This document shows, in pieces, positions 8,647 to 20,611 of a DNA stretch of 31,706 nt. The position numbers and the translations under genes were made by a program. Source of the stretch: a virus (Duplodnaviria > Caudoviricetes). Numbering within the stretch: position 1 is the first letter of the stretch; every line of letters begins with the position of its first letter. The stretch covers positions 1 to 31,706 of the IMG/VR virus record IMGVR_UViG_3300048988_000013. One strand, written 5' to 3'. The notes below the pieces were generated by a model. It made no database searches and was not told the origin of the DNA. It saw nothing but the letters and a program-made list of their open reading frames with translations.

Positions 8647-8813
8647 GGGTTGCCTGCCTCGATGAATTCGACCAGTTTGCGACGCGAGAAGCGCCAGAGT
8701 TTGCCTATGCGGCGGCCGGGCAGCAATGACCTCGAGGCCATCTGCCGTACCGTCGGGGGAGTAAGGTGAAGCAATTCAGCGGCTTGCTCGACGGTGAGGA
8801 TGTCGTCGCTCAT
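8490..8813 (-). CDS. xis: Excisionase-like winged HTH (HTH_17)
   Basis: ILTVEQAAELLHL...TVR......LPGRRIGKLWRFSR; overlaps the int start. Confidence 0.8.
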   Translation of the reverse strand: MSDDILTVEQAAELLHLTPPTVRQMASRSLLPGRRIGKLWRFSRRKLVEFIEAGNPCPSTNDAAPTTTGVDSRSVADAFSNRQEPPTGSKRKSTSSAFRVVSGGKLD

Positions 8814-9304
8814 GAGCGCCCCTTGATCTGGTTGGCGACCGCCGGAATCACCCGCAAATTAACCCCAATATGCAGCCCGCTGACGTGCTTGCCGTGTAAC
8901 GGATAGATATGGTCGACGTGGAAAGGGATGCCGGTGCAAAGGCTTACCCGGGCCGCAGTCTCATAGATCGTTCGAATGTGCTTGCGATCCGCCCAGGCTG
9001 GGGTGCGACGTTTCTTCGATGCACGATGCCAGGAGAAGTACTCCGCGAGTTTTGGCCGGAGTTCCTCGCGCTTAGCGGCATTCCGAGCGTTGCGCTTGAT
9101 GTTCTCGCGACGGCGGTATTCGGCTCTCCAGAATCCCTCCGGGTCGGCCCACCACAGGTTCAACAGATCAGTGGAGAACACCCAAGCGCGCCCGATCTTG
9201 CAAGCTGGCACGTATCCACGTCGACACCACTCACCCAGCGTATCGAGGTGCACTCCTAAACGCTTCGCCGCCTCATCAAGGCGCATTGTGCCGATTTCGC
9301 TCAC
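8810..9304 (-). CDS. Xis-like HTH fused to an HNH endonuclease domain
   Basis: GTG 9304 (GTGA overlap). N-term LDEAAKRLGVH..TL..W.R.G.VPA.KIGRAWVF; C-term RTPAWAD...HVDHIYPL.G..VSGLH...NL.VIPA..N..K. Confidence 0.8.
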   Translation of the reverse strand: MSEIGTMRLDEAAKRLGVHLDTLGEWCRRGYVPACKIGRAWVFSTDLLNLWWADPEGFWRAEYRRRENIKRNARNAAKREELRPKLAEYFSWHRASKKRRTPAWADRKHIRTIYETAARVSLCTGIPFHVDHIYPLHGKHVSGLHIGVNLRVIPAVANQIKGRS

Positions 9305-9468
9305 CCCGGCTTCCCCACCGGCGCCTGCCGCTTCTCGACCGGCCTCAACACCCCGCCGCACTTGCCGCAGCGCTTGAGCGATGCCTGGACGGCCTGGTAC
9401 TTGTGGCCGCACTCAGGATTGGTGCACTCCAAGAGGACGGTGCTTGGCGAATTATCGGCCATGGTCAT
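9301..9468 (-). CDS. Small zinc-ribbon protein (55 aa)
   Basis: Hand translation with ECTNPECGH...RCGKCGG; stop overlaps the next start. Confidence 0.65.
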   Translation of the reverse strand: MTMADNSPSTVLLECTNPECGHKYQAVQASLKRCGKCGGVLRPVEKRQAPVGKPG

Positions 9469-12314: not shown

Positions 12315-13472
<1,158 letters not shown>

Positions 13473-13504
13473 ATTATTTGCTCCTTGCGATACGTTGATA
13501 TCGA

Positions 13505-13582
13505 TCATTTCTGGCCCGCGCGCCAGATCCAACAGCTTTCCGTCTTTTCGATTCGCGCCGCCAAGTATTCGCTAATCGGCAA
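13505..13582 (-). pseudogene. Probable remnant of an HNH homing endonuclease N-terminus (25 aa)
   Basis: Hand translation (L/M)PISEYLAARIEKTESCWIWRAGQK*. RIEKTESCWIW resembles the KV.K...CW.W.G start of HNH_3-type phage endonucleases. Confidence 0.5.
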
Positions 13583-17227: not shown

Positions 17228-17499
17228 GACAAAAACCGATCCGTCTTCTTGGTACCCCGGAAGGCCGCCATGTTGAAACGGGCGAGTCGCTTATTGCGGA
17301 TCCGCATATCGCGTTTCTCCCGCCAGGTGAGATATCGGCGACACGCTAAGTCGCCGAGCAGCACCAGCACGGCGAGCACGATGACGCAGCCGAAGGCGAT
17401 GATCGCGATCAGGCCGGTCATGAGGTACGCCATGACGGCGAACACGCCGGCCGCCAGAACGCCGATCGAGATCAGGAGGGGCGTGAGGAGGCGGCTCAT
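17224..17499 (-). CDS. Two-TM membrane protein with basic C-terminus
   Basis: ATG 17499; about 45 consecutive largely hydrophobic residues followed by an Arg/Lys-rich tail. Confidence 0.65.
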   Translation of the reverse strand: MSRLLTPLLISIGVLAAGVFAVMAYLMTGLIAIIAFGCVIVLAVLVLLGDLACRRYLTWREKRDMRIRNKRLARFNMAAFRGTKKTDRFLS

Positions 17500-17665
17500 G
17501 GGGACACCACTTCGGTGACCTTGCGATGAGTCGGCCGCTCTGCGTGCCACTCGCGCGCCCAGGCCAACGCCTCGTCATGCGTGGTGCCCCGCCGTGTTCG
17601 GCCGCCGAACATGGTTCCAAAGCCGTCGTTGATTGTGTCGCGGACGCACCAGCCGTAGATGTTGG
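17496..17665 (-). pseudogene. Orphaned 3' half of the gene interrupted by the element at 17666-18488
   Basis: Reads (T)NIYGWCVRDTINDGFGTMFGG...EALAWAREWHAERP...VVSP*, in frame with the 5' half at 18489-18701; its stop overlaps ATG 17499. Confidence 0.8.
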
Positions 17666-18488
17666 TATGCTTATCCGGTTAGCGCCCACACCTACTAGAT
17701 GTTGGGTGTACATAAAACCCCGCATTCTATATCCGGTTCAGCTTTGTACCGGCCCGCGTTTGGGGGCAATTCATCTAGGAATACTCGCTTGCGCCAGCGC
17801 TTCCCGTTTGTGACGCCTTCCTTTTTACATATGGCTGCATCCAGCGTTCGTTCCATTTTCGCCATGCGGTCAAATACCAAGGGAAAATCTTTGCGAATCT
17901 TATTCCAGTACCCCGACTGGCCTTTAACGCACCCTATGCAATTGTTGTTTTTGTAGCCCAGTTTGTACATTGCAGGTTGTTCAATGCCCGCGTCCTTAAC
18001 TGCTTGATGGCACATGGCTTTTGTTATGCCACGCCTCAATAGGGGAAATTCCGTCTCTAATTCTGGGTTTTCTTCGCGGAACCGACGCACGCGGGAGGCT
18101 TCCTCAGACGTGAAGCCGAACACATGCAAGTCGTCCACTGTTTGGTATGCCTTGCGAACGTTCTTTTTAAGCTCAGTCGTACAGCGAGCACCTTGGATGC
18201 CAATCAGCCAGCGGGTTTTCTCGAACACATCGTAAATGTCTGTGTACTCCGCGGATTTTAAAACTGTAATCGGCTTGCCTATCCAGCGCTCTACGTCCTC
18301 CATGAACCGGCGATTGTCGGGATGTTCATGCGCTAGCGTGTCGCAATAGACGATTTCGCAGCCGTCGCCATATTTATCGACGGTAAGTTTTGCCGCGTAG
18401 GCGCTGGCGGACCCGCACGAGAACCAAGCAAGTACACGATTCATATACACAACCTCTTGTGTTTGTGGGTGTCAAGCGGATAAGCATA
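17666..18488. mobile_element. Non-autonomous TIR element (mobile insertion cassette), IS1595-family-like ends, one passenger gene
   Basis: TIRs TATGCTTATCCGGTTAGCGCCCACA (17666-17690) and rc TATGCTTATCCGCTTGACACCCACA (18464-18488) match at 21/25. GATGTTGG is duplicated at 17658-17665 and 18489-18496. No transposase; visibly AT-richer than its flanks. Confidence 0.88.
17695..18444 (-). CDS. PAPS-reductase-family / adenine nucleotide alpha-hydrolase protein (passenger gene)
   Basis: PP-loop variant WFSCGSAS, EHPDNRRF, CTTELKK, FPL, NNCIGCVKG..GYW and ECGVLC. RBS AGAGG before ATG 18444. Confidence 0.85.
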   Translation of the reverse strand: MNRVLAWFSCGSASAYAAKLTVDKYGDGCEIVYCDTLAHEHPDNRRFMEDVERWIGKPITVLKSAEYTDIYDVFEKTRWLIGIQGARCTTELKKNVRKAYQTVDDLHVFGFTSEEASRVRRFREENPELETEFPLLRRGITKAMCHQAVKDAGIEQPAMYKLGYKNNNCIGCVKGQSGYWNKIRKDFPLVFDRMAKMERTLDAAICKKEGVTNGKRWRKRVFLDELPPNAGRYKAEPDIECGVLCTPNI

Positions 18489-18701
18489 GATGTTGGTATC
18501 GATTACTACGTGGGTGAACCCGGCGCGCTGGTGATCGCGCTGCACGGCGCAAAGCTGACCGTCGCGATCTTGATAGCCGAACCTACTGTTCTCGCGCCAG
18601 TTCTGCTCGCCAATGTCCTTCGCCTGCTGGATCTCAAGCGCCCAGCGCGGATCGGTAGGTTCGCAATGCGTGATTCGCTGAAAGGAAAGGGCGGCGCTCA
18701 T
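18441..18701 (-). pseudogene. 5' half of the interrupted gene (72 native codons plus 14 element-derived codons)
   Basis: MSAALSFQRI...HVVIDTNIY then AYPLDTHKHKRLCI* read from the TIR; stop overlaps the passenger ATG. Confidence 0.75.
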
Positions 18702-19078: not shown

Positions 19079-19197
19079 ATGCTACGGGAAGCCGTAACAA
19101 AAAGTCAACGGGATTCCGTAATGCTGTGATGCATACCGCGCAAACGCTCGAATGAACTGCTTTTACATAACTAAATTATGTTGTGACGGGATGCCGT
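19079..19197 (-). promoter_or_regulatory. pL-like promoter with three left operators
   Basis: Minus strand TTGACT (19108-19103)-N18-TAGCAT (19084-19079); ACGG-N4-CCGT at 19084, 19108 and 19186. Confidence 0.75.
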
Positions 19198-19273
19198 AAT
19201 TGACGGGAGAAATGTGCAGCGGAGTAGTCGATTGAGATAGAAGGGGATTGTGTATTGCAAGGAGCTAAATTCA

Positions 19274-20392: not shown

Positions 20393-20611
20393 ATGGACAC
20401 ATGGGCATCGCGAATTCGGGACCTGCAATCGGTGGGTAAATTGAAGTTGAGTGATATCGCGGAGAAGATTGGGGTCTCCACCTCCTCGATCGGCGATATA
20501 GCGACTGGCCGAACCAAATCACCACGGGGTGATGCAGCACTCAAGCTATTTGAACTGCACAAGTCATTGGTTCCCGTGCGTTCGAAATCCAAACCCATCG
20601 CCGCTGTCTAG
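20393..20611 (+). CDS. cro: Cro-like HTH regulator
   Basis: LSDIAEKIGVSTSSIGDIATGRTKSPR; divergent from cI. Confidence 0.85.
   Translation: MDTWASRIRDLQSVGKLKLSDIAEKIGVSTSSIGDIATGRTKSPRGDAALKLFELHKSLVPVRSKSKPIAAV

Follow-up and report, generated by a model that had tools for sequence, protein, structure and literature searches.

An 823-bp transposase-less IS1595-type cassette with a PptA-like cargo gene in a split gene of a temperate soil phage

What is the segment that interrupts a small gene of a temperate soil phage, by which means did it arrive, and what would be the use of the enzyme gene that it carries? These questions are raised by a window of 31,706 nucleotides, the whole stretch of DNA that was analysed, which represents an incomplete phage genome that encodes tail, endolysin, integrase, RecE-like, primase-helicase and terminase functions. 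The original prediction, made from the letters of this DNA, described a transposase-free mobile cassette derived from the IS1595 family, which would have split a phage gene and would deliver a PAPS-reductase-like modification enzyme among phages. The follow-up described here covered the insertion itself, the family of elements to which it belongs, and the cargo protein.

The structure that had been described was recovered in full on re-computation. The insertion is an AT-richer segment of 823 bp at 17666-18488, without a transposase gene, whose terminal inverted repeats (TIRs) agree at 21/25 positions, including all 12 outer ones, and at 34/45 when extended. It is flanked by an 8-bp duplication, the core of a 13-bp direct repeat found at 17656-17668 and 18487-18499 with a spacing of 831 (Table 1); the extra 5 bp are explained by target flanks that resemble the ends of the element. 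The GC content of the element lies at 0.50, below the 0.63 and 0.62 of its flanks, and the GC3 value of the cargo is 0.58, against 0.72-0.84 in nine phage ORFs. An 8-bp repeat combined with a 12-bp inner inverted repeat free of mismatches was observed once in the window and in none of the 30 resamples drawn from an order-3 Markov model. A third copy of the 10-mer that contains the duplicated 8-mer lies at 17696 and is, judged by its sequence, part of the subterminal motif of the element and not of the target; on the minus strand, this motif provides the last codons of the cargo and its TAG stop. The insertion is genuine and looks recent.

Table 1. Positions, strands and basis of the features of the interrupted locus in the window
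Feature	Position	Strand	Basis
5' part of the split 124-aa phage gene	18497..18701	-	intact relatives; reading frame
Remainder (3') of the interrupted phage gene, with a stop that overlaps the following ATG (17499)	17496..17657	-	reading frame; intact relatives
Target-site duplication, copy 1, 8 bp	17658..17665	.	single copy in the intact homologue L008
Target-site duplication, copy 2, 8 bp	18489..18496	.	repeat comparison
IRR, terminal inverted repeat downstream of the cargo	17666..17690	+	20-21/25 as in the IRR of autonomous L050 and L019
IRL, terminal inverted repeat upstream of the cargo	18464..18488	-	23-24/25 as in the IRL of L019 and L050
Subterminal palindrome-like motif, position 30 of the end	17695..17704	+	also in L002; partly in ISAcr1
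Cargo gene, 249 aa, PptA/SspD-like PP-loop Cys-rich enzyme (phrog_424)	17695..18444	-	PADLOC; PDB 21FY chain C; alignment
Shine-Dalgarno-like GAGG, 8 nt before the cargo ATG	18453..18456	-	sequence
Promoter-like site upstream of the leftward early operon, outside the element	19079..19108	-	1 found, 0.9 expected by chance: weak

Removal of 831 bp in a script restored a single 124-aa frame running from 18701 to 17496, with a TGA that overlaps the next ATG (17499). A search for the uninterrupted gene then returned five intact relatives that span the junction (L008 and P0121-P0124). L008 encodes an uninterrupted protein of 124 aa with 88% identity to the 5' part and holds one copy of the target, and P0121-P0124, which were all four matches among six candidates, are 56-85% identical to L008. 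No family was assigned to the product of the split gene in Pfam, PHROGs or PADLOC. In the sequencing runs, one contig of run X1, a possible source sample, covers the filled site, and the empty site that had been anticipated was seen in the same run, where a 399-nt contig from a relative runs through the junction and skips a net 831 bp. The circle junction was not present in contigs of six runs, a material in which its absence cannot be established. The exact duplication together with the end gave 0 matches in viral contigs, and the insertion site was not seen elsewhere. The 5' part of the broken gene now reads into the IRL and terminates at a TGA (18443-18441) that overlaps the cargo ATG, and in effect the insertion trades a small phage gene for the enzyme.

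The ends of the window element recur at many sites with different flanks and different cargo, as had been foreseen. Patterns built from them matched 77 and 64 viral loci and 35 genome loci, and at least 124 matches were obtained in metagenomes, of an estimated 550 or so; a query with the transposase gave 70 viral loci. Among L001-L377 plus the window, 128 elements possess both ends and a matched 8-bp duplication, the feature by which members were chosen and which excludes loci with one end or unmatched flanks such as L139/L144. A full transposase is encoded by 54 of them, which supplies the autonomous partner that had been sought, and a partial one by two; 51 are transposase-less and at least 330 bp long, the window element included, and 21 are shorter than 330 bp, several without an ORF. 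The set of 126 elements, which is the 128 minus one duplicate and one nested pair, holds 119 distinct duplications, and 122 of the 126 are perfect and four have one mismatch, in members selected on this very feature. The excluded locus L139/L144 (Ga0265318_10000009) spans 3,536 bp; it has both ends between unmatched flanks, and it encodes a transposase and a pptA-like protein of 342 aa.

All seven transposases tested pass the NF033547 model with 184-189 bits (cut-off 75), and the three tested against Pfam contain PF12760 (Zn-ribbon) and PF12762 (DDE_Tnp_IS1595). The nearest named element is ISAcr1, whose transposase is 68% identical to that of the chromosomal member L212, and the ends of the window element share 44/50 positions with those of the autonomous L050 and L019. 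The idea of an IS1595-derived passenger cassette is borne out by these ends, which are common to elements with an IS1595 transposase, and the segment is almost certainly a transposase-less IS1595 cassette with ISAcr1-like ends. The window ends also fit nnnGCnTATC, presumably the consensus of the ISSod11 subgroup; ISAcr1 is absent from the subgroup table consulted (PMC8101967, supplement 6). A tblastn search of the 31.7-kb window with the family transposase (E<=1) gave no match; the contig is a partial phage genome, and a partner could be encoded elsewhere in that genome. Likely, then, the cassette was moved in trans. A separate viral contig of 117 kb, IMGVR_UViG_3300050119_000104 (L060, L066, L067, L070 and L351), contains several near-identical mini-elements of 235-242 bp with different duplications, plus an autonomous copy; such multi-copy short members beside an autonomous copy (L060, L067, L070, L351) may bear indirectly on mobilisation in trans.

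Viral copies are many, and the family is also chromosomal. A phage-only family was ruled out by the 35 genome loci, which include copies beside recN, gatA/B, xerC and ligase genes. Four of the seven autonomous genome copies are a plain 1.17-kb IS, and 43 of the 46 autonomous viral copies hold at least 450 bp of extra DNA. In cultured phages no close relative of the transposase was found (3 records, 28-33% identity). A chromosomal cassette between gatA and gatB (L211:4000-4914) has a transposase remnant and a gene for a HAD hydrolase, which indicates that bacterial cargo is carried too.

The architecture of the sister elements suggests how a cassette of this kind could have formed. The majority of autonomous viral copies hold small passengers after the IRL and before the transposase gene, the stop of which falls in or near the IRR; in the autonomous L338 a pptA-like gene lies directly upstream of the transposase, and in the transposase-less L024 the end of the pptA-like cargo consists of the last residues of the transposase. 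Deletion of the transposase may be the simplest route to the cassettes. Among 60 cargo-bearing transposase-less elements, the first start codon falls at +30 to +51 in 48 and the last stop codon within 35 bp of the other end in 44, figures that express a tendency, since starts of this kind were favoured by the ORF picker, which also mis-called two or more elements. In a crude test of orientation relative to the flanking genes, 44 cassettes had the same direction, 31 the opposite one, and 8 were ties.

Genes related to the cargo are carried by several members of the family. L002 contains a cargo 81% identical to that of the window between the same ends and with another duplication. In another soil study (runs X2 and X3, which represent one sample), a contig agrees with 18245-18489 at all but one position and then continues into a different outer flank, and on its inner side it departs from the cargo after about 65 codons; as this sister cargo stops there, cargo can decay quickly. 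The stop is directly followed by a new start codon, possibly a cargo replacement in progress. Three pieces of 148-151 nt from two freshwater runs match the interior of the element exactly, at a depth of 2, a weak signal. The cassette-borne pptA-like genes (window; L002 and L166; L338; L024 and L139; L009; L049) interleave with phage homologues without the ends in a quick tree, in which the gene of the window falls in no starred group, and this branching suggests that the gene body may have been repeatedly captured or swapped. At 80 further viral pptA-like loci the family ends were found in none (0/80), from which it follows that the gene mostly spreads without the element and that the cassette form is rare.

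The cargo ORF starts at the ATG at 18444 and encodes 249 aa. Its only solved relative found by sequence is chain C of PDB entry 21FY, named PptA (E 7e-71), which is identical to QGH73774.1 of the Vibrio phage vB_VhaP_VH-5 and shares 48% identity with the cargo over the full length (249 columns). Both proteins display a PP-loop-like N-terminus, a CxxC motif and C-terminal Cys motifs, and seven of the ten Cys residues of the cargo align with Cys in PptA; unlike the cargo gene, pptA of VH-5 follows the RNA polymerase gene of a T7-like phage, and no mobile element is annotated in the stretch examined. Entry 21FY also contains IscS, with the sequence of entry 1P3W. In PADLOC the cargo matched SspD only (residues 7-200, E 1.9e-13), with no DndC match. 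Eight of its ten Cys residues are invariant in 120/120 homologues, and the structure model (pLDDT 90) adopts a PAPS/APS-reductase-like fold. The earlier description as PAPS-reductase-like holds for the fold and for the PHROG label (phrog_424, 'PAPS reductase'), and is now replaced by a more precise placement: by homology, the cargo is a PptA/SspD-type protein and not CysH. The phage family to which it belongs is very large, with at least 7,809 proteins in one count and about 2,900 viral stretches in another. Two pptA-like proteins, P0096 and P0106, are extended at the N-terminus and reach about 370 aa, and P0110 has a similar N-terminus; the extension of P0096 resembles a nucleoside 2-deoxyribosyltransferase (E 2e-6), a possible clue to chemistry at the level of the base or nucleotide.

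The activity of PptA would have to be read from the contents of 21FY and from homology, and no description of PptA was found in the literature searched, in which subscription journals are thinly represented. On that basis the cargo likely acts in a phosphorothioation-type counter-defence by which the phage would dodge host defences. Its likeliest role would be the modification of phage DNA with sulfur fed by IscS, which has somewhat better than an even chance of being right, and the same weight is given to a role that may lie either in DNA sulfur modification or in action against PT defence. SspD normally acts together with SspA-C, and the solitary state of the cargo counts against a phosphorothioation role: the cassette has a single gene, and no partner from an SspA-C or DndA-E operon was found among the 30 window ORFs scanned (Pfam, PHROGs). 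According to bioRxiv 10.1101/2021.05.05.442762, escape from Dnd is conferred by a two-gene region of a Vibrio phage that includes a PAPS-domain-Dam fusion. In the anti-Dnd protein of Piel et al. the fusion partner is Dam; its kinship with the cargo would be putative, a point that tells against the main explanation.

Taken as a whole, the explanation that appears probable, with considerable room for error, is that of an IS1595 cassette inserted in trans, whose PptA-type cargo would draw sulfur from the host IscS to modify phage DNA against restriction. Autonomous phage members, mostly arranged as IRL, passengers, transposase and IRR, would have lost the transposase and left IRL, cargo and IRR, and in the reduced cassette the stop codon of the cargo would be supplied by the element end. 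The transposase of a co-resident or co-infecting sister would recognise the ends and act in trans, with insertion at loosely palindromic sites of the form RT-n-[8 bp]-n-AY, and the intermediate would probably be a circle with an end-8 bp-end junction. Because the cargo points the same way as the early leftward operon and its translation is coupled to the 5' part of the broken gene, it would be made early in infection, and the enzyme would introduce phosphorothioate-type marks or provide another counter to Dnd/Ssp defence.

A first alternative keeps the element as it is and changes the substrate: the cargo would modify a tRNA, a base, a nucleotide or a cofactor, or would block PT defence by tying up IscS. 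The PP-loop fold is indeed common to TtuA, LarE, GMP synthetase and Cap9 (Z 9-11), some homologues such as P0096 carry the deoxyribosyltransferase-like fusion, and SspB/C or DndD/E partners are missing from the 30 ORFs. Against these points, SspD was the sole PADLOC match, DNA methyltransferases and Mom-like enzymes are over-represented among the cassette cargos, and phage PAPS reductases have been proposed as DndC/SspD-like anti-defence proteins and grouped with DNA-modification genes (PMC13551039). This alternative is considered unlikely, yet it is the best placed of those weighed here.

The company kept by the cargo bears as well on a second alternative, in which the cassette would be a selfish, near-neutral passenger whose ends took up an adjacent early-region gene, with no advantage conferred by the cargo through the element. 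Such a view can draw on the 21 short members, on the small cargos, most of which have no annotation, on the disruption of a conserved gene by the insertion, on the truncated cargo of runs X2 and X3, and on the autonomous elements, in which a recognisable DNA-modification passenger was present in only 5/54 (ORFs scanned). It has to contend with the content of the sister cassettes, in which DNA methyltransferases from several PHROG families occur alongside Mom-like proteins and further pptA-like genes. In viral transposase-less cassettes, with the window excluded, DNA-modification genes made up 12/26 cargo ORFs of 130-360 aa against 3/96 flank ORFs of the same size from 33 loci, a sample that may contain non-genes (Fisher p 2e-7); the cargo count was 8/22 (p 5e-5) when four related methyltransferases were collapsed and L002 was dropped, and among ORFs with a named family the counts were 12/14 in cargo and 3/26 in flanks. 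The cargo frame of the window and its Cys residues are also intact, and a purely selfish passenger is regarded as rather improbable. Among the sister cassettes are ones with Mom-like genes, a methyltransferase with an HNH nuclease, and a DHH phosphoesterase (L251:3013-3480, L043:258-893, L279:896-1948, L275:1119-2051).

Far less credible is a true PAPS reductase (CysH) that would serve as an auxiliary metabolic gene for sulfate assimilation. The PHROG label and the top fold matches, which are PAPS/APS reductases (best Z 12.7, rmsd 3.6, 167 aligned), speak for it, and other prophage genes have been interpreted in metabolic terms in the literature (bioRxiv 10.64898/2026.02.18.706556); but the cargo matched no Pfam model, PAPS_reduct included, and no NCBIfam model, and its identity to these reductases is 11-14%, compared with 48% to PptA, in addition to the SspD match.

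The other option raised at the outset, a lox-like 12-8-12 site at which a tyrosine recombinase such as the phage integrase (7657-8646) would excise the segment and restore the gene, agrees with the geometry of the joined ends but can be set aside as highly improbable, given the 119 different cores among 126 elements with no fixed core, the DDE transposase of the sisters, an empty site without inverted arms, the end-8 bp-end joints expected of IS ends, and the lack of the excised form in four runs. These joints occur between adjacent elements in L225 (L225:4012) and L078, and the targets of the family form a loose palindrome that resembles the element end; together they explain the lox-like look without a recombinase. 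In L078:3000-4034 the same 8-mer is present three times around two cassettes, as if one had inserted exactly beside the other.

Two other ideas on targeting were discarded. An origin of the non-consensus terminal bases in the target, as in a duplication of 9-10 bp, fitted 6/8 ends in a first set and only 6/13 overall (p 0.24). Targeting through homology to the element interior was abandoned as well, because the 10-bp match occurs only in the window among 45 elements and was taken as a coincidence with the subterminal motif. This motif is found at position 30 in 43/256 family ends, against a background of 0.0007 per position, and it resembles what we take to be an NrdR box. The subterminal palindrome may be a second transposase site. 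In its conserved form it sits between -35-like and -10-like boxes.

To return to the IS1595 cassette, passenger-carrying and transposase-less forms of this family are already known, which limits the surprise. ISAcr1, described from Acidiphilium plasmids (WP_007421341.1), has near-identical ends, including the subterminal motif, and the same length of duplication, and like the autonomous family members it has the transposase stop inside the IRR; it is a simple autonomous IS, whereas the window element lacks the transposase and carries a phage gene. The ends of the latter start with T, in place of the C of the family consensus. The label of mobile insertion cassette (MIC) presumably denotes a kindred type. 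The general features of the family have been described (PMC8101967). The 'transporter IS' elements MTnSag1/tISSag10 and tISCpe8 of the IS1595 family hold passengers between 25-bp TIRs with an 8-bp duplication, and a circular intermediate has been reported for MTnSag1 (PMC5704250). These elements are found in Gram-positive bacteria, have resistance genes as passengers and retain their own transposase, whereas the hosts of the present family are mostly uncultured phages and its cargos are phage accessory and DNA-modification genes. Furuta and others described restriction-modification (RM) units of Xanthomonas oryzae and Neisseria with inverted repeats, an 8-bp duplication and no working transposase, and raised action in trans as a possibility (Furuta et al., 2010; PMC2853133). 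Those were one-off cases on bacterial chromosomes with RM cargo; the present family is large, its autonomous partners are identified, and in phages it has a sulfur enzyme as cargo. The cargo differs from SspD and DndC in that the match is distant and that it stands alone, without other Ssp/Dnd modification genes. No account of a phage IS1595 cassette family was found in the searched literature, again one thin in subscription journals.

Recombination is regarded as the main means by which temperate phages shuffle their accessory genes. The family described here would constitute a vehicle, defined and encoded by its ends, for the movement of counter-defence genes from one phage to an unrelated one, and its partner transposases can be named. 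A more far-reaching proposal, put forward tentatively and perhaps doubtful, is that ISAcr1-like ends form a transposase-driven 'armour shuttle' of soil and freshwater phages that makes a one-gene phosphorothioation mobile. If this were true, the ends would frame a reusable expression slot, with a ribosome site and start codon about 33-50 bp inside one end and a stop codon from the other, into which genes of DNA methylation, Mom-type hypermodification and phosphorothioation would be captured, swapped and stacked in tandem; a sulfur-modified backbone could then be gained in a single jump, in an integron-like system run by a DDE transposase. The large phage family of the cargo is routinely labelled as a sulfur-metabolism gene, and a pptA-like gene that shares its vehicle with methyltransferases and Mom-like enzymes offers contextual, homology-independent evidence for DNA protection.

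Regarding expression, the cargo is read in the direction of the leftward early operon, and the IRL contains a -35-like TTGACA at 18475-18470, with no consensus -10 in the window copy. No terminator-like site was found in the cassette, so the downstream genes would still be transcribed. Around the leftward promoter-like site (19079), three 15-bp inverted-repeat-like copies at 19084-19200 have an operator-like arrangement, and a small HTH gene (20393-20611) lies 1.2 kb from them. Elsewhere in the window, an excisionase-like HTH is fused to an endonuclease VII-like domain beside the integrase gene (8810-9412, minus strand), and the early operon encodes a 405-aa DUF6745 protein (12315-13532, minus strand).
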